Notes: a model not told the origin generated them from the letters alone. DNA of 64,000 nucleotides from an uncultured Hyphomicrobiales bacterium (GCA_964650885.1 CAZYXG010000002.1:86409-150408); one strand, 5' to 3'; shown: positions 52,107 through 59,527, counted from the first letter of the stretch. Program-made: numbers and translations.

Positions 52107-52159
52107 TTGTAAGTTTTTAATTATTTAATTTTAATAATTAGAATATACAAATAAAATTT

Positions 52160-52663
52160 TTATTTATATAAATCTTTCAGAGATTCTAAACGAATATAAA
52201 AAATTCTGTAATCTCTATTCAGTAAATCTGGTCTATCGAACTTGTTATTCCAGATATATCTTTTCACAAAATCATTAGTCGGATTCTCAAAAATAATGTA
52301 AGTCATTGTATCTGCTGTGACATTGAGAGTTTCATTACGTAAAATTAACTTTGTAAAGTCTGGCAAAACAGAGCAATAGAGAGAATCTGGTATTTTTGTA
52401 ACAAAAACACCAGATGTGTCAGTAATTGAAGTGATTGATTCTACAACACCATTTGTTTTGAGAATATAACTATTGAAAATTTTCTCTGTTTTCCTGATTA
52501 AGCTACCCCACTTTAGAGTTGTCTTAGTATTCATGGAATCAACACATTTTGTGATTGGATAGTTCACTATTATAGCTTCTTTAGTTGCAGTGTTGGTGCA
52601 AGAAGCTGCAATTATTATCAATACAAAGGGGACAATCAAAAAATTAAAGATTGATTTTTTCAA
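52160..52663 (-). CDS. Hypothetical lipoprotein
   Basis: Lipobox AASC. The 5' end overlaps the gltX stop by 4 nt. Confidence 0.4.
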   Translation of the reverse strand: MKKSIFNFLIVPFVLIIIAASCTNTATKEAIIVNYPITKCVDSMNTKTTLKWGSLIRKTEKIFNSYILKTNGVVESITSITDTSGVFVTKIPDSLYCSVLPDFTKLILRNETLNVTADTMTYIIFENPTNDFVKRYIWNNKFDRPDLLNRDYRIFYIRLESLKDLYK

Positions 52664-54111
52664 TTGAAATAACCTGAATCAAGTTTTACAAAAAATTCAT
52701 TCATTCTTGCTTCACATTCTGCCTTGCCTAACAACGCCATAGTTTCATAAAGACTAGCTCCTACTGCTTTTCCAGTCAGCACCAATCTTAACGGGTTCAT
52801 AATTTCGCCGAATTTTAATTTCTTATCATTTATGAAAGTTTTTACAGCATTTTCAATTGGGTCGTGTGTGAATTCTTCCAAAGCAAACAAAGCATAAAAC
52901 AATTCTTTAGCAGTTTCACTAGTCGTTTCTTTCCAACATTTTGCAAAATATTCTTTGTCGTAGTTTGGTTTTCCAAACATATAATCACCAAACACTGGTA
53001 ATTCATGCAAAAAGTGAATTCTTTCTCTAAGCAATTTTATTACTTTAGCAATGTAATCCTGTTCGAATTCAACTGCTGTGCTTTCTATATAAAGCTTTGC
53101 TAAATAGTTCACATCCATTGAGCGGAAATATTGTCCTTGCACCCAAAGCAATTTTTCTCTATCGAATACAGCACCTGCTTTATTTACTTTTTCCAGATTA
53201 AATTCAGCTATTAGTTCATCAATTGTAAATATTTCTCTATTATTTGTTGGATTCCATCCAAGCAATGCTATGAAATTAACAAAAGCTTCTTTCAAAAAGC
53301 CAGCTGAATTAAATTCTTCTACTGAAACTGAGCCTGTTCTTTTTGATAATTTTGATTTATCTTCGTTCAAAAGCAAAGGCAAATGTGCAAATGTAGGTGC
53401 AGTCCAATTAAATGCTTTATAAAGCAAAACGTGTTTAGGAGTAGAAGGAAGCCATTCTTCACCTCTGATAACGTGGGTAATTTCCATAAAGTGGTCGTCA
53501 ACTACGTTTGCTAAATGGTAGGTAGGGAATCCATCGGACTTTAATAAAATTTGGTCGTCAATATCTTTTCCAAGCACTTTAACTTCGCCACGGATTACAT
53601 CTGCGAATTTCACTTCTTCATTGTAATCTACTTTTAATCGAATTACATATTCAGTGCCTGCTTCAATAAGCTTTTTAGTTTCCTCAGCTCCAAGAGTGAA
53701 GAAGTTCTTCATTGTAGTTCTGTCATATTTTGGTGAAAGACCAGAGTTTTTTTGTCTTTCACGCATAGCTTCAATTTCTTCAGAAGTGTCGAATGCAAAA
53801 TATGCAGAGCCATTATCAATTAATTCATAAGCATATTTTTTATATAAATCGAAACGCTCAGATTGTATGTATGGTCCGTAATCGCCACCAACGTGTGGTC
53901 CTTCATCAAATTCAAGCCCAGCCCAATTTAAAGATTTAATCAAATTCTCTTGTGCATCTTCTACAAGTCTTGTTCTGTCGGTATCTTCAATACGAAGAAT
54001 GAACTTCCCATTGTGGTGTTTAGCGAAAAGATAATTGTAAAGTGCAGTACGCAGACCACCTACGTGTAGAAATCCAGTTGGCGATGGAGCAAATCTAACT
54101 CTAACAGACAT
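52660..54111 (-). CDS. gltX: Glutamate--tRNA ligase
   Basis: HIGH-type PTGFLHVGGLRTA and KMSKS-type KLSKR. Confidence 0.92.
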   Translation of the reverse strand: MSVRVRFAPSPTGFLHVGGLRTALYNYLFAKHHNGKFILRIEDTDRTRLVEDAQENLIKSLNWAGLEFDEGPHVGGDYGPYIQSERFDLYKKYAYELIDNGSAYFAFDTSEEIEAMRERQKNSGLSPKYDRTTMKNFFTLGAEETKKLIEAGTEYVIRLKVDYNEEVKFADVIRGEVKVLGKDIDDQILLKSDGFPTYHLANVVDDHFMEITHVIRGEEWLPSTPKHVLLYKAFNWTAPTFAHLPLLLNEDKSKLSKRTGSVSVEEFNSAGFLKEAFVNFIALLGWNPTNNREIFTIDELIAEFNLEKVNKAGAVFDREKLLWVQGQYFRSMDVNYLAKLYIESTAVEFEQDYIAKVIKLLRERIHFLHELPVFGDYMFGKPNYDKEYFAKCWKETTSETAKELFYALFALEEFTHDPIENAVKTFINDKKLKFGEIMNPLRLVLTGKAVGASLYETMALLGKAECEARMNEFFVKLDSGYFN

Positions 54112-54314
54112 TTTTAACTTTTAAATTGTAATAAAAATAATCTCAAAATTAATCATTTTAAAGTAGAATATTTCAATAATAGATTAACAAAAGTGAATAT
54201 TTAAACTTCAATAGGCAAGATATTTGCTATAAACTAAGCATTGAAACATTATTTGGTTTTTATTTAATAAGTTTTGAAGTATATTAAGTTTTTGAAACTA
54301 ACATTTGATAGAAA

Positions 54315-55649
54315 GTGGACTTTCTCATTAATATAGTAAAATTAAAAGCACAATTAGATTCTTTGCGACCGCTCAAACCAGAGCTTGAGCAAAAACTGAT
54401 GACAAGCTATAAAGTATTCTGGAATTATAACTCAAATAATCCAGAAGAAAGTCCATTAAATTTTGAAGAATCAAGAGATTTCACTCTCACTGGCAAAGTA
54501 TCAAACCCAAAAGAATTCCATAAATTCTATTCTCAGCGTGGACATAACGAAGGAATAAAAATAATTGAACATGCTGTCAAAGATAATACACCTTTGACAG
54601 AAGAATTAATTAAAAAATTGCACGTTGCTGTTATAAAAGAAGCAAATGACTACTTAATGTCTCTTCCAATCAATAAAGATAAGAAGTTGAAAATCTATGC
54701 TGGCAAGTACAAAACTATCAAAAACTTAGTTAAAACTAGAACAGGCGACACCTTTAATTTTGCTTTACCAGTGGAAACTCCTCACAGGATGGAAGAATTA
54801 CTCAAATGGTACAACGAAGTAGATAAATTAGAAAAGTTCAGTAAATTTTTTTTGGCTGTGAATTTCCATTATAAGTTTTTATGTATCCACCCATTCGATG
54901 ATGGCAATGGAAGAACAGCTCGACTTTTAATGAATTATATTCTAATGAAAGATGGTTTTCCACCAGTTATTCTAAGAAAAGAAGAAAAAATAAACTACTT
55001 GCTTGCTATTCAGCAATCCGATAGAGGTTCGATTTACCCACTGATTGAATTTCTTGGCAATAATTTAGTAAAATCTTTAGAGCTTTTCCTTAAAGGTATA
55101 GTTAAAGGGGCTATTAGCGAACAAGATATAAGTGAAATATTACCTATTGAAGATGTTATAAATCACGCATTACATCCAGTGATGGCAAATAAAATTATAT
55201 ATAGATCTACTGATTCATTGCTTTATTTATTCGATTTTTGTATCTCTCCATTGATCAATAAATTTGTCAATGGTTGCCAAAAATTCTTCAAATATTATGA
55301 CGAAATACACATCTCGCACACAAGCGACCCTCATTCAAGATTTGTATCTATCAATGACACAATAATTATAGCTAGACGTTCAATTGATGTGAAAAGAGAA
55401 TATTTCAACTTGAAATTTGATTTTAAGAAAATCAAAATTAGCGGAATAGAAGTTCATTTCACTGCCGTTATTTCATTTCATTTCGGCGGAATGTCATATC
55501 AAGTTTTCACTGGTCCAAAAGAAGTACATTTTGAAAAACAACTAAGTGAAAACTTAACAGATGTTGAAATCAATAAACTTGTACTAGCTGAAATGAATAG
55601 ACACGAAATTGAAATAAAGAGAAAAATTGCTGCAAAAAAGACATACTAA
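54315..55649 (+). CDS. Fic family protein, long form (copy 1)
   Basis: Active site HPFDDGNGRTAR (54888-54923). The GTG start is the only start that keeps the N-terminus (LDSLRP) conserved among the paralogues. Degenerate inhibitory motif SNNPEE. Confidence 0.85.
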   Translation: MDFLINIVKLKAQLDSLRPLKPELEQKLMTSYKVFWNYNSNNPEESPLNFEESRDFTLTGKVSNPKEFHKFYSQRGHNEGIKIIEHAVKDNTPLTEELIKKLHVAVIKEANDYLMSLPINKDKKLKIYAGKYKTIKNLVKTRTGDTFNFALPVETPHRMEELLKWYNEVDKLEKFSKFFLAVNFHYKFLCIHPFDDGNGRTARLLMNYILMKDGFPPVILRKEEKINYLLAIQQSDRGSIYPLIEFLGNNLVKSLELFLKGIVKGAISEQDISEILPIEDVINHALHPVMANKIIYRSTDSLLYLFDFCISPLINKFVNGCQKFFKYYDEIHISHTSDPHSRFVSINDTIIIARRSIDVKREYFNLKFDFKKIKISGIEVHFTAVISFHFGGMSYQVFTGPKEVHFEKQLSENLTDVEINKLVLAEMNRHEIEIKRKIAAKKTY

Positions 55650-55665
55650 ATTTGTTTAAGTCCAA

Positions 55666-56994
55666 ATGAACAACATATACAAAATAGAAAGACTACGCAA
55701 AGAGCTTGATTCGCTCCGCCCAATAAGCTCGGAACAAGAAAAGAGAATAATGCAAAAATTCCGATTAGATTGGAATTTCCACTCAAACAATAAAAGAGAA
55801 GATGCACTTTCTTATAGCGAAGTCAAAGCACTTATTTTGCATAGCTTAACAGCATCAGGCAAACCATTAAGATTGCACTATGAAGTGCGTGGACACAACA
55901 AAGCAATCAAATGGATTGAAAAATTAGTATTGGAAAATGAAGATATTTCCGAAGAAATGATAACTAAACTGCATACATATTTACTAAAAGAATCTTATGA
56001 AGTTGAAGCATTAACTAGTGAAGGATTTCCAATTAAAAGAAAAGTTCAAATTGGTAAATATAAAGCAGTTCCAAATAGAGTGAAAACTCGAACTGGAGAA
56101 ACTTTTCACTTTTCTTCTCCCGATGAAACACCACAAAGAATGCAAGAACTTGTAGCTTGGTATAAAGAAAAAGCATTAAAGAAAAAGTACAATGTAATTC
56201 TACTAGCAGCCGAATTTCATTATAAGTTACTTTGCATCCACCCATTCGATGATGGCAATGGTAGAACAGCCCGACTTTTAATGAACTTTATTTTAATGAA
56301 AGCTGGCTATCCTCCAATTATCTTCAAAAGAGAAGAAAGAATTAACTATCTCCTTGCTATCCAACAAGCAGATGGAGGGCATTTTCAAGCCCTACTGGAT
56401 TTTGTTTGCTCTAATCTTATTAAATCGTTAGAGTTTTATTTGCGTGCCGCCAAGGGTGGTGAAATTGAAGAATTTAATGACTTAGATTTGGAAATTGCTC
56501 GGCTAGAACAAAAGCTTGTTTTAGTAGCACTTCCACCAAAAGCAAAACCTAAAAACAAAGAAATAATGCTTAAAGTATATGACTTTACTGTAGCTCCACT
56601 ATTAACAAAGTTTATAAATAGCAGTTTAAAGTATAATAAGTTTTATTTAGATATTAAAATTTCACCAACAAGTAACAATATCAATAAATTCATATCTTTA
56701 GAAGATTCTATAGAAACTGGCAGAAAAATGATAGATGTTAAAAATGAATATTTCGTAATGAAATGCGAATATAGAAAATTCAAAACTGCTCAAATAGAGC
56801 TTTATTTCATTAGTTCTATCTACTTTTCTTTTCAGCCAACCATCTATAAAGTTTATAATGGCAATAAAGACATTGTTTTTGAAAAGTACTATACAGAGAA
56901 TCTAAAAGACGAAGAAATTGAATTACTTGTTATGTCTGAAATGAAAAGACATAAAGATGAAATTGAAAAGAAAATAAATTTGATAACTACCTAA
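55666..56994 (+). CDS. Fic family protein, long form (copy 2)
   Basis: Active site HPFDDGNGRTAR (56239-56274). The inhibitory motif position reads SNNKRE, with Arg where Glu is expected. Confidence 0.85.
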   Translation: MNNIYKIERLRKELDSLRPISSEQEKRIMQKFRLDWNFHSNNKREDALSYSEVKALILHSLTASGKPLRLHYEVRGHNKAIKWIEKLVLENEDISEEMITKLHTYLLKESYEVEALTSEGFPIKRKVQIGKYKAVPNRVKTRTGETFHFSSPDETPQRMQELVAWYKEKALKKKYNVILLAAEFHYKLLCIHPFDDGNGRTARLLMNFILMKAGYPPIIFKREERINYLLAIQQADGGHFQALLDFVCSNLIKSLEFYLRAAKGGEIEEFNDLDLEIARLEQKLVLVALPPKAKPKNKEIMLKVYDFTVAPLLTKFINSSLKYNKFYLDIKISPTSNNINKFISLEDSIETGRKMIDVKNEYFVMKCEYRKFKTAQIELYFISSIYFSFQPTIYKVYNGNKDIVFEKYYTENLKDEEIELLVMSEMKRHKDEIEKKINLITT

Positions 56995-57013
56995 TAAAAT
57001 AAGCTAATTTGGC

Positions 57014-57838
57014 GTGATGGAAATATTTGAGAAAATAGATAGCTTAAAATCTGTTTTGGATTCACTAAAGCCCTTTAACAAGGAAAAAGAAACCAAAATT
57101 AAACATAGATTTAGAATTGATTGGAACTATCACTCCAACCATATGGAAGGCAATTCTCTAAGTTTCCACGAAGTGAAAGCATTGATAGCATTGGGTATGA
57201 ATGTGCCTGGCAAACCACATAGAGATCATTTGGAAATTAAAGGACATAATGAAGCTATCAAATGGATTGAACTATTAGTAAGAATGGACTACCCGATTAC
57301 TGAAGATTTCATTAAAGAAGTCCATAGAATGATTCTCAAAGAGCCCTATGACATCCAACTAAGAACAGAATCTGGACACATAACTCATAGACAAATTTGG
57401 ATTGGGCAATACAAAGCAATGCCAAATCACGTAATTGCATCGAATGGAAGATCATTTACTTTTGCATCGCCACAAGAAACAACTTCCAAAATGGCAGAAC
57501 TTGTGAAATGGGTTCAAGAAACAGCAAAAGATGAAAGTGTACATCCAATTGAATTAGCAACTGAACTGCACTACAGATTTATTGCTATTCATCCGTTCGA
57601 TGATGGTAATGGTCGCAGTGGTAGAATACTACTTAACTTCATACTAATGAGAGCTGGATTTCCGCCAATAATAATACGCACCACAGACAAAAAGGCCTAC
57701 TTTAAAGCCCTGCAACAGGCCGATAATGGAGATTTATTCCCTCTAAGAGATTATTTTGGTGGGTATTTGATTGAGTCTATTGAATTAATGATTTCAATGC
57801 TTAAAGGTGAAATAAGTATTGAAAATTATGAATACTAA
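57014..57838 (+). CDS. Fic family protein, short form (copy 3) with intact N-terminal inhibitory motif
   Basis: Active site HPFDDGNGRSGR (57590-57625). SNHMEGN (57134-57154) equals (S/T)xxxE(G/N). The likely start is the ATG at 57017. Confidence 0.85.
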   Translation: MMEIFEKIDSLKSVLDSLKPFNKEKETKIKHRFRIDWNYHSNHMEGNSLSFHEVKALIALGMNVPGKPHRDHLEIKGHNEAIKWIELLVRMDYPITEDFIKEVHRMILKEPYDIQLRTESGHITHRQIWIGQYKAMPNHVIASNGRSFTFASPQETTSKMAELVKWVQETAKDESVHPIELATELHYRFIAIHPFDDGNGRSGRILLNFILMRAGFPPIIIRTTDKKAYFKALQQADNGDLFPLRDYFGGYLIESIELMISMLKGEISIENYEY

Positions 57839-57850
57839 TTAGTTAAGATT

Positions 57851-58570
57851 ATGTCAAACAAGATGCCACTTGTAAAAGAAGAATTAAAGTATCTCTCAAT
57901 CAAAGAATGGGACAAAAGGGATAGACCAAGAGAAAAACTTCTTAATAGCTCAGCTGAAGATTTAAGTGATGCTGAACTCTTGGCAATATTATTGGCAACA
58001 GGTTACAAAAGATTATCTGCACTTGATTTGGCAAAACAGTTACTTGCTCGCTTCGACAATGATTTAGAGAAGTTTCTAACTGCTCCTCCTGAAGAACTAA
58101 TGACTATAAAGGGAGTAGGGGTAGCCAAAGCAATAACAATTAAAGCTGCATATTCACTCTCAAAAAGAGTAATTATCACTGATTTCAAAAGCAAAGTGCA
58201 AGTAAATTCTACACTAATTATTTTGAAAAAGTATGTTCCAAAATTAATTGATTTAAAAGTAGAGCATTTCTATGCTATTTATTTGAATTCAGCAAATCAT
58301 ATAATTAAAGAAACTAAAGTAAGCGAAGGAATACTCAATGCCAGTTTGGTTCATCCCAGAGAAGTGTTCAAAGATGCAATACTAAACACTGCAGCTCGAA
58401 TTATACTAATTCATAATCATCCAAGTGGCAATCCACAACCCTCGGTGCAAGACAAAGAAATTACTAAGCAATTGCAAGATGCAGGCAAAATTATGGGAAT
58501 AGAAATCTTGGATCATATAATTATAGCAGGGAACAGACATTTTAGCTTTGCTGAGATGGGTTTAATTTAA
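57851..58570 (+). CDS. radC: RadC-family JAB/MPN-domain protein
   Basis: HhH segment IKGVGVAKA, JAMM motif HNHPSGNPQPSVQD. Confidence 0.85.
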   Translation: MSNKMPLVKEELKYLSIKEWDKRDRPREKLLNSSAEDLSDAELLAILLATGYKRLSALDLAKQLLARFDNDLEKFLTAPPEELMTIKGVGVAKAITIKAAYSLSKRVIITDFKSKVQVNSTLIILKKYVPKLIDLKVEHFYAIYLNSANHIIKETKVSEGILNASLVHPREVFKDAILNTAARIILIHNHPSGNPQPSVQDKEITKQLQDAGKIMGIEILDHIIIAGNRHFSFAEMGLI

Positions 58571-58574
58571 CTTC

Positions 58575-58602
58575 AAAAAAAAGCCATCACAAAGTGATGG
58601 CT
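58575..58602 (-). terminator. Intrinsic terminator of atpG; also the only hairpin after radC
   Basis: AGCCATCAC / GTGATGGCT stem with a 3-nt loop, followed on the - strand by T8. Confidence 0.75.
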
Positions 58603-58633
58603 AAATAAAAGTTATCTATTTTTTTTTAATTTC

Positions 58634-59527
58634 TTATGCTTTGGTAAGAGCTTCTGCCCCACCAACTATTTCAAGCATTTCAGTTGTAATAGCAGCTTGA
58701 CGTTTTGAGTTGTATTGTAAGTTCAATACGCCAATTAATTCATTTGCATTGCGAGAAGCGTTGTCCATAGACATCATCCTAGCAGCTTGTTCAGCAGCAT
58801 TTGAATCAAGTAATGCTCTCCAAACAGTCAAATTTACAAGTTTAGGAAGCAAATCATCTAAGATGGCTGCAACACCTGGCTCATAAACATAATCTAATTT
58901 GAATTTAGAAGCAACTTCATCTATCTTTACGCTTGGTACTAAAGGAAATAGTTGTTTTGCATTCGGAATTTGTCTAACTAAATTTACAAATTTATTGCCA
59001 AGAACATAAACTAAATCTACTTCACCAGAATTAAATTTTGATTTCATTGAATCTACAATTTCAACAGCAGTTTCAAATTTCAAAGCAGCAAAAACACCTG
59101 GGAAAGAATTAGGCATACTGTAAGCATCTTTATTATAATAAGATACTGATTTTTTCCCAACAGCTACAAAATGAAAATTTGCACCAGGAAATTGAGTTTT
59201 CAATTCATCTTTAATGAAATTATTTGCAAATTTCAATAAGTTAGAATTAAAACTACCACACAAACCTCTATCGGAAGCAACAACAATAATCCCAATGTTT
59301 TTAACCTCTTTGTGGTTTTCCAAAATCGGGTTTGTATAGCTATCGCCAACATTAGCAATTAGATTTGAAACTAATTCATCAAATTTATTGAAATATGGTC
59401 TTGCCGATTCAATAGCTTCCTGAGCTCTTCTAAGTTTAGAAGCAGAAACCATTTTCATAGCTTGTGTAATTTTAACGGTGTTTTTCACACCTTTTATTCT
59501 AAGTCGTATGTCTCTTAATGTAGCCAT
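58634..59527 (-). CDS. atpG: F0F1 ATP synthase subunit gamma
   Basis: MATLRDIRLRIKGVKNTVKITQAMKMVSASKLRRAQ and a conserved C-terminal helix. Confidence 0.92.
   Translation of the reverse strand: MATLRDIRLRIKGVKNTVKITQAMKMVSASKLRRAQEAIESARPYFNKFDELVSNLIANVGDSYTNPILENHKEVKNIGIIVVASDRGLCGSFNSNLLKFANNFIKDELKTQFPGANFHFVAVGKKSVSYYNKDAYSMPNSFPGVFAALKFETAVEIVDSMKSKFNSGEVDLVYVLGNKFVNLVRQIPNAKQLFPLVPSVKIDEVASKFKLDYVYEPGVAAILDDLLPKLVNLTVWRALLDSNAAEQAARMMSMDNASRNANELIGVLNLQYNSKRQAAITTEMLEIVGGAEALTKA

Follow-up and report, generated by a model that had tools for sequence, protein, structure and literature searches.

Enzymes of the Fic family are mostly studied singly, and for most bacterial members the way in which their AMPylation activity is restrained in the cell is an open matter. 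In class II and class III Fic proteins the Glu of an (S/T)xxxE(G/N) motif blocks productive ATP binding, and its mutation de-represses AMPylation, often with toxic effect (PMC5651007, PMC6408439). A 64,000-nt stretch of DNA from an uncultured Hyphomicrobiales bacterium (GCA_964650885.1 CAZYXG010000002.1:86409-150408; at its full length referred to below as the window) carries at positions 54315-58570 three consecutive + strand fic genes, here fic1, fic2 and fic3, followed by radC. The question raised by this locus is why two of three adjacent paralogues have lost the canonical inhibitory motif and kept an intact active site, and what the third, in which the inhibitory motif is canonical, does beside them. 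Our analysis indicates that the genes very probably constitute an old, functional and lineage-specific array of three Fic proteins, operon-like in layout and differentiated in its motifs.

The fic1 gene (54315-55649) starts with GTG and encodes 444 amino acids (aa), a Fic core followed by a C-terminal domain; it is the most diverged of the three copies. The fic2 gene (55666-56994, 442 aa) has the same two parts, and fic3 (57014-57838, 274 aa counted from its GTG) consists of the Fic core only. Gene callers and the orthologue in a related contig, L001, place the start of fic3 at the ATG at 57017 (273 aa), which is probably the true one. In a hidden Markov model (HMM) search all three proteins exceeded the gathering score of Pfam Fic (PF02661, cutoff 24 bits), with 72.8 bits for Fic1 (4e-20), 77.9 for Fic2 (1e-21) and 76.5 for Fic3 (3e-21), and Fic was the only domain that Pfam found in them. 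The complete HxFx(D/E)GNGRxxR motif is present in each as HPFDDGNGR(T/S)(A/G)R, starting at residue 192 in Fic1 and Fic2 and at residue 193 in Fic3. It lies on the + strand at 54888-54923 in fic1 (HPFDDGNGRTAR), 56239-56274 in fic2 (HPFDDGNGRTAR) and 57590-57625 in fic3 (HPFDDGNGRSGR); no further Fic motif occurs in the window. Thus the reading frames, their intact HPFDDGNGRxxR motifs and the position of radC behind them, all listed by a first-pass annotation of this DNA, were found again.

As reference for conservation and for the ratio of nonsynonymous to synonymous substitution rates (dN/dS) we used L001, a 25-kb metagenomic contig from a related but distinct lineage. Its gene order is identical (gltX, fic1-fic2-fic3-radC, atpG), and over nine genes it is 85-96% identical to the window in protein and 78-89% (about 83%) in DNA. 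Complete catalytic motifs are retained in the L001 orthologues.

Differentiation was found in the N-terminal inhibitory helix. Strict (S/T)xxxE(G/N) occurs nowhere in the sequences of Fic1 or Fic2, so that by this motif Fic3 belongs to class II and Fic1 and Fic2 do not. Fic3 carries a canonical class II motif, SNHMEG, at residues 41-46 (57134-57151, + strand). At the corresponding sites, Fic1 has SNNPEE (54432-54449, + strand), where a Pro takes the conserved L/I position and the Gly is changed to Glu, and Fic2 has SNNKRE (55783-55800, + strand), with the inhibitory Glu replaced by Arg and the same G to E change. These three states are conserved in the window and L001 alike. The family consensus for this helix is HSNNLEGNSL, and 117 of the 120 best family members have the canonical SNx[L/I]EG; the sole three deviants among them are Fic1 of the window, Fic1 of L001 and the Fic2 orthologue. 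The collinear N-terminus noted earlier for all three copies holds in its DWN(Y/F)HSN part for Fic2 and Fic3 but not for Fic1, which reads FWNYNSN.

The same contrast between active site and regulatory region was obtained when we counted deviations at 142 positions, defined as those at least 90% conserved in 196 outside, single-copy members. Fic1 deviated at 59 of them, Fic2 at 34 and Fic3 at 32, compared with a mean of 3.5 and a maximum of 20 in the outside members; ten of the deviations of Fic3 are linker or C-terminal-domain positions that are wholly absent from it. In the inhibitory-helix region 23, 10 and 12 of 35 positions deviated in Fic1, Fic2 and Fic3, and further changes concentrated in the post-core helices, whereas in the catalytic core only 3-6 of 31 were affected. 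The AlphaFold2 model of Fic1 had a predicted local distance difference test (pLDDT) score of 80.5, with the inhibitory-helix region at low confidence.

To which family do these proteins belong, and how is it usually arranged? Fic1 and Fic2 are collinear with "Fic family proteins" of about 440 aa (2963 matches, 33-39% identity, 95-100% coverage) from Bacteroidota, Acidobacteriota and other hosts. The closest solved structure is BT_2513/BtFic (PDB 3CUC), with a profile E value of 2e-98 over positions 4-275 and a Foldseek E value of 4e-19 (template-modelling score, TM, 0.83 on the target), followed by FICD/HYPE/Fic-1 (about 1e-39) and CdFic (4x2e, 2e-25). Fic3 corresponds to the family core and stops where core and linker meet; orthologues apart, it comes closest to full-length members (51-56% identity). 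By sequence and profile comparison, all three are assigned to a widespread class II family of BtFic(3CUC)/FICD-like proteins that is normally single-copy. A census of 80 family loci in other species-representative genomes, taken from among the matches listed, agrees with this: both motifs, catalytic and inhibitory, are kept in 76 of the 80, and the family gene is almost always alone. The first-pass annotation had noted that single Fic genes are common. The multi-Fic loci among them comprise a tandem pair (L078), two divergent pairs (L045, L049) and a locus with a distant fragment (L076). The pairs, in L078 (7992-10530, from a Latescibacterota metagenome-assembled genome), L045 (6619-9347) and L049 (1908-4682), keep both motifs in both copies; they are unlike the array in that no copy lacks the inhibitory motif.

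The order Fic-Fic-Fic-radC, for which a synteny survey had been suggested, is retained in L001 and absent from the 80 other loci listed; protein searches with Fic1 and Fic3 each returned one orthologue cluster beyond the window. Since neither the triplet nor its adjacency to radC was met in the other loci listed, the arrangement appears specific to a narrow, poorly sampled microbial-mat lineage of the FCB group. The 143 immediate neighbours of the listed family loci fall into 190 Pfam families, the commonest seen four times, and type I restriction-modification genes were met 2-3 times. DnaJ-family proteins and NAD-dependent DNA ligase each occur three times among these neighbours (L005-L084), which are small numbers; the former may be mentioned because the known target of FICD is an Hsp70 (BiP).

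The second difference between the copies is the C-terminal domain of about 150 aa, present in Fic1 (55191-55646, + strand) and Fic2 (56542-56991, + strand) and missing from Fic3. The differentiated regulatory and C-terminal parts that had been described for this tight triplet were therefore borne out on both counts: SNNPEE and SNNKRE vs. SNHMEG, and a C-terminal domain in Fic1 and Fic2 only. The domain is predicted with a pLDDT of 90.6 and a predicted TM score of 0.85 as an α/β fold, in which a long helix is followed by a five-stranded sheet with one intervening helix and by a long C-terminal helix. It had no Pfam match and no fold match in PDB (best E 0.29, TM at most 0.34). An exhaustive profile search recovered 453 representative clusters, mostly Fic fusions; the domain is a portable module and likely the specificity or sensor element in a family with thousands of members. 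It also follows a ParA/MinD-like P-loop N-terminus (P0251) and an AAA-ATPase-like N-terminus (P0266), and its invariant residues are Y328, K408, L414, E418 and H430 in Fic1 numbering. Matches of about 186 aa that looked like stand-alone copies begin at a Met inside the Fic core and were set aside as probably truncated gene calls.

How old is the array, and is it maintained? The paralogues share 44% (Fic1/Fic2, full length), 40% (Fic1/Fic3) and 47% (Fic2/Fic3) protein identity, and gene-wide, the residues conserved between them are encoded by identical codons as often as expected from codon usage (z = 0.57, -1.48 and 1.27). Codon identity at chance level means that the synonymous sites are saturated and the duplications old. 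A recent duplication, which the first-pass annotation had considered together with gene conversion and strong constraint, is at odds with these values. The observation behind that proposal, a perfect 26-nt run shared by copies 1 and 2, proved exact (54885-54910 and 56236-56261) and occurs nowhere else in the window. The run encodes the invariant peptide IHPFDDGNG; given identical peptides, its eight identical codons have a P of about 0.004 under independent codon choice. A local excess of codon identity was seen only around the catalytic motif, with z = 2.15 in the window and 0.58 in L001, whose fic2 orthologue has two synonymous differences within the run. With the run broken in L001 and the local excess missing there, the case for recent duplication falls away, and the run would represent at most a very short conversion tract (tens of nucleotides) or a nucleotide-level constraint. 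Ongoing gene conversion along the genes was likewise rejected, as gene-wide codon identity is at chance and the local excess is marginal and gone in L001.

Synonymous sites in three parts of the array are themselves conserved: third codon positions are 90-95% conserved vs. L001 (background 60%) at 54383-54455, 54881-54950 and 55619-55707. The first of these islands is the fic1 inhibitory-helix region and the second the fic1 catalytic-motif region with the 26-nt run. Such islands may reflect nucleotide-level constraint, be it from translation initiation or an internal promoter, or else a conversion tract.

Selection on the three genes was estimated against L001. Values of dN/dS were 0.046 for fic1, 0.031 for fic2 and 0.022 for fic3, compared with 0.036 for gltX, 0.044 for radC and 0.063 for atpG (dS above 1). 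As these ratios resemble those of the housekeeping flanks, we concluded that all three fic genes are maintained by selection; pseudogenised or decaying copies were rejected on the same grounds (dN/dS 0.02-0.05). The array and its flanks are retained in L001, so the arrangement is neither decaying nor the strain-specific duplication that had been named as a possible outcome.

The order of events was addressed with a neighbour-joining tree and with derived residues. In the tree, Fic1 and Fic2 are sisters (95% bootstrap) and the three copies form a clade (71% bootstrap). Fic1 and Fic2 share seven derived residues, including G45E, and several derived residues have no counterpart in the 196 outside members: F243L in all three copies, T53V in Fic2 and Fic3, and G45E in Fic1 and Fic2. 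Tree and residues together give the history (Fic3,(Fic1,Fic2)), and the data support two tandem duplications within the lineage, with a burst of divergence and subsequent stabilisation. In the scenario that we propose, one single-copy class II gene would have given rise to the array by two successive tandem duplications. One daughter, Fic3, would have lost the C-terminal domain and retained the canonical autoinhibitory helix with SNHMEG. The other would have acquired the G to E change at the last motif position and then duplicated, after which Fic1 would have gained its helix-breaking Pro (SNNPEE) and Fic2 would have exchanged the inhibitory Glu for Arg (SNNKRE).

Are the genes expressed together? 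The fic genes and radC (57851-58570, + strand) lie on the same strand with gaps of 16 nt (fic1-fic2), 19 nt from the GTG or 22 nt from the ATG (fic2-fic3) and 12 nt (fic3-radC), in agreement with the short distances given before (16, about 20 and 12 nt). There is no strong internal terminator: the sole internal + strand terminator-like site (56376-56393) is weak, as is a further one at the radC 3' end (58538-58558), and both fall within coding sequence. The unit ends at a hairpin at 58582-58602, between the convergent radC and atpG, which has a 9-bp stem with 5 G-C pairs and is the strongest terminator-like site found. The hairpin reported earlier after this unit is thus present, with its orientation corrected: its T-run belongs to the minus (atpG) side, and on the + strand the stem follows an A-run, so that it looks bidirectional. 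The radC-atpG spacer (58571-58633) is only 48% identical vs. L001, yet compensatory substitutions have maintained a stem of 8-9 bp (window, GCCATCAC/GTGATGGC; L001, GCCAACTC/GAGTTGGC); this pattern speaks well for a real terminator, which is probably bidirectional.

At the other end, fic1 is separated from the divergent gltX by a 203-nt spacer (54112-54314), where the first-pass annotation had also placed the start of the unit; it is the presumed promoter/operator region for both the fic array and gltX. Between the window and L001 this spacer shows 84% identity, compared with 58-65% at third codon positions. Conservation of the promoter-type spacers is in general 84-91%, and that of the gaps inside the array 35-64% (35% for fic3-radC). 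A small conserved palindrome (GCAAGATATTTGC) near 54213-54228, beside the only variable patch of the spacer, could be an operator for divergent promoters. The spacer gave no Rfam match, no supported RNA structure or covariation and no conserved small open reading frame (ORF), and a small upstream antitoxin or structured RNA within it was accordingly rejected. In a check for a class I antitoxin, no conserved ORF of at least 20 aa was present upstream of fic1, no gap inside the array exceeds 22 nt, and a 41-aa ORF of L001 has no inhibitory motif and no conserved counterpart in the window. Matches to sigma-70-type promoters were no commoner than in shuffled sequence (19 vs. 20.5) and are thus uninformative on internal promoters; no synonymous-conservation island precedes radC. 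A search for RNA libraries that contain the organism returned none. In libraries of unknown type, low-depth contigs of 150-240 nt bridge the junctions fic2-fic3 and fic3-radC; they also cover the promoter spacer and probably derive from DNA. Taken together, the spacing of the genes and the pattern of spacer conservation favour co-transcription of fic1-fic2-fic3-radC.

The last gene of this putative unit encodes an ordinary, full-length housekeeping RadC of 239 aa, with UPF0758 N-terminal, HhH and JAB domains (NCBIfam PRK00024, 237.4 bits, cutoff 180; TIGR00608, 225 bits, cutoff 134; Pfam PF04002 and PF20582). None of the 80 listed family loci has radC nearby, and RadC orthologues at 50-56% identity sit without Fic elsewhere, beside cutA in two lineages. 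A conserved linkage of Fic and radC was rejected on this basis, and radC is probably co-transcribed here as a positional passenger. The nearest RadC beyond the two lineages is only 56% identical; matches were named Ignavibacteriae, Kapaibacteriales, Bacteroidota and Calditrichia.

What, then, could three such enzymes do together? The pattern of motifs leads to a testable prediction of control from one paralogue to another, by inhibition in trans or by deAMPylation. Fic1 and Fic2 would be AMP-transferases that are no longer canonically self-inhibited, and the co-expressed Fic3 would hold them in check in a Fic-Fic complex through its inhibitory helix acting in trans. Alternatively, Fic3 might strip off the AMP added by Fic1 and Fic2, since Fic enzymes that bear the Glu can deAMPylate: the conserved Glu is needed for this reaction in FICD and EfFIC, and BtFIC has an equivalent Glu (PMC6408439). 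The C-terminal domains of Fic1 and Fic2 would pick the targets or sense a signal, and radC would merely be the next gene on the transcript. An experimental precedent exists in Campylobacter fetus subsp. venerealis, in which a class II Fic1 binds and neutralises an adjacent, motif-less Fic2 and needs its own motif to do so (Sprenger et al. 2017, PMC5651007). As in that pair, adjacent fic genes with and without the inhibitory motif are found here. Cross-regulation between the paralogues is, in our estimate, a tentative proposal with somewhat less than an even chance of being right. The overall explanation that fits best, an operon-like array in which Fic3 restrains or reverses two de-repressed AMPylases, comes close to an even chance and stays just below it.

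Several points weigh against this explanation. A Glu is still found at the canonical position of Fic1 and one residue further on in Fic2, so that some autoinhibition or deAMPylation could persist in both. The comparison with C. fetus is inexact, as the array has intact catalytic motifs and the motif-bearing gene last, whereas in C. fetus the motif-less partner has a degenerate catalytic motif and the motif-bearing gene comes first. As to ancestry, the cores of Fic2 and Fic3 are 53-56% identical to outside members and only 47% to each other, and the bootstrap for the three-copy clade is only 71%; Fic3 may have been acquired independently. The synonymous-conservation island at 55619-55707 spans the fic1-fic2 junction and could reflect an internal promoter or a constraint on translation initiation.

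The main rival to cross-regulation is sub- or neo-functionalisation of independent enzymes, which would act on different targets or signals, be co-expressed through their tandem origin and replace the altered helices by another form of self-regulation, e.g., by the C-terminal domain, oligomerisation or metals. The strong and separate constraint on all three genes is what such a course would leave, as are the heavy divergence in the N-terminal and post-core regions flanking the active site and the Glu retained at the canonical position of Fic1. Other means of control are also documented, in that SoFic toxicity is regulated by its C-terminal domain (PMC12249575) and Fic activity by oligomeric state and metals (PMC6408439). 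Yet, independent specialisation leaves unexplained why loss of the canonical motif, seen in 0 of 117 other close members, should occur only beside a co-encoded canonical copy, and why that lone canonical copy shed its C-terminal domain. We regard it as unlikely, though worth serious attention.

A division of labour as in a split FICD-type enzyme is less probable still. Fic2, and perhaps Fic1, lack the Glu that activates the catalytic water and would be dedicated AMPylation "writers", with targeting by the C-terminal domain, and Fic3, which bears the Glu and no such domain, would be a dedicated deAMPylating "eraser". If this improbable version were true, Fic paralogues alone would make up, within a single bacterial operon, a complete switch for reversible AMPylation.

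At much the same low level, and if anything lower, stands the view of the locus as an anti-phage abortive-infection module of the SoFic or PADLOC PDC-S04 type, in which a Fic toxin would be freed on infection and a paralogue would serve as antitoxin. The best PADLOC matches were indeed PDC-S04 (E 1e-27 to 1e-35) and SoFic (1e-18 to 1e-26), SoFic provides defence through AMPylation, with a small antitoxin encoded beside it and a C-terminal domain of regulatory function (PMC12249575), and the C-terminal domain of the array is also fused to ParA-like and AAA-ATPase-like N-termini. No curated cutoff exists for these PADLOC models and what they match is the generic Fic core, so the Fic fold by itself may account for the matches; the NCBIfam SoFic equivalog scored 28-41 bits vs. 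a cutoff of 550. The C-terminal domain, with no match in Pfam or among PDB folds, is not that of SoFic, and the single published test of a PDC-S04 gene showed no defence activity (PMC12409345). The setting argues in the same direction, since the genes around the array are of housekeeping type (gltX, radC, ATP synthase) and none nearby is a defence or mobile gene, restriction-modification genes make up only 2-3 of the 143 neighbours of the listed loci and no family occurs there more than four times. A functional Fic-RadC unit, in which the Fic proteins would act with or on RadC, e.g., in DNA repair or processing, could appeal to the 12-nt gap on the same strand, the adjacency kept in L001 and the lack of a conserved promoter-like island before radC, but is very improbable given a full-length housekeeping RadC, Fic-free contexts for its orthologues at 50-56% identity and radC near 0 of the 80 listed loci.

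The locus can be regarded as a natural experiment, in which a near-invariant motif was dismantled in two copies only, beside a co-encoded canonical third. If Fic3 does control its neighbours, the single experimental precedent from C. fetus would extend to a different phylum and a different architecture; should it not, what is left is a common enzyme family that expanded in tandem long ago. For experimental work the locus is a well-posed lead; specialists would not find it surprising.

The surroundings of the array are chromosomal. It is flanked by gltX (52660-54111, divergent from fic1) and downstream by atpG (58634-59527, convergent with radC), and the Pfam-annotated neighbours in the window are housekeeping genes: Mur ligase, SurA-type rotamases, a sigma-54 response regulator, gltX, ATP synthase and an epimerase. 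No tRNA and no break in GC composition were found in the window and no integrase among the Pfam-annotated neighbours; a mobile island was rejected for these reasons, which leaves the earlier view of a chromosomal locus rather than an obvious island in place. Next to gltX, a 167-aa ORF (52160-52663) that looks lipoprotein-like and has no Pfam match overlaps gltX by 4 nt; conserved in L001 with a dN/dS of 0.135, it is a real, uncharacterised gene that is apparently coupled to gltX. The 53-nt spacer between the sigma-54 response-regulator gene and this ORF (52107-52159) is 91% conserved vs. L001. Sequence at least 99% identical to the window was found at low depth in microbial-mat, sediment, freshwater, "outdoor" and glacier metagenomes. 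Four further DNA metagenomes contained the same species only (at least 99% identity), with no deletion joints. The host lineage of the array, a member of the FCB group, is widespread but poorly sampled.

How does the array compare with known systems? Its closest counterpart is the Fic1-Fic2 pair of C. fetus. In both, fic genes are adjacent on the same strand, one has (S/T)xxxE(G/N) and its neighbour does not, and the C. fetus pair requires no small antitoxin. The differences are considerable. C. fetus has two genes with the motif-bearing one first, and the array three with the motif-bearing one last; Fic2 of C. fetus has G191T and lacks the final Arg, whereas the motif-less copies of the array keep a perfect catalytic motif. 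An extra C-terminal domain is carried by the motif-less copies of the array and is missing from the motif-bearing one. Moreover, the array paralogues are derived from one another, and the C. fetus genes lie in a pathogenicity island with a type IV secretion system, whereas the array lies in a housekeeping region of the chromosome and is known from sequence alone.

With the BtFic/FICD group the array shares the architecture of an N-terminal inhibitory helix, and the Glu on which FICD and EfFIC rely for deAMPylation is still present in Fic3 (PMC6408439). BT_2513 (3CUC) has no assigned function. FICD has a membrane anchor, tetratricopeptide repeats and BiP as its target, none of which was seen in the array proteins, for which Pfam reported Fic only. 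In addition, Fic1 and Fic2 lack the canonical motif, and their C-terminal domain of about 150 aa has no solved counterpart. SoFic and PDC-S04 resemble the array in HMM similarity, in the Fic AMPylase core with N-terminal elements and in having a C-terminal accessory domain. The toxicity of SoFic is countered by the product of an adjacent gene (PMC12249575). In the array the C-terminal domain is a different one, the candidate regulator is no small protein but a Fic paralogue, and there is no defence island; PDC-S04 itself is an unverified candidate that was inactive in one published test (PMC12409345). The pairs VbhT-VbhA and Fic-1-AntF embody the same concept, an inhibitory Glu provided in trans to a Fic enzyme that has none of its own. 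By its title, a 2026 paper (PMC13327609) reports that the Fic-1-AntF complex acts as a deAMPylase, which would link trans-inhibition to deAMPylation. Unlike these class I pairs, the array has no small antitoxin ORF, and the candidate donor of the Glu is a full Fic enzyme.

The first-pass annotation did not recognise the triplet as a described system. This stands for the three-gene form, the intact catalytic motifs and the split distribution of the C-terminal domain, but not for the tandem principle, which has a precedent in the C. fetus pair (PMC5651007). Fic genes as such, class II autoinhibition, tandem Fic-Fic regulation and paralogue expansions are already known. Among the expansions, the Bep effectors of Bartonella are an example. 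What is new is a conserved three-gene array from a normally single-copy family, a loss of the canonical inhibitory motif that is restricted to this array and leaves the catalytic motifs of the motif-less copies intact, and the reciprocal partition of inhibitory helix and C-terminal domain between the copies.

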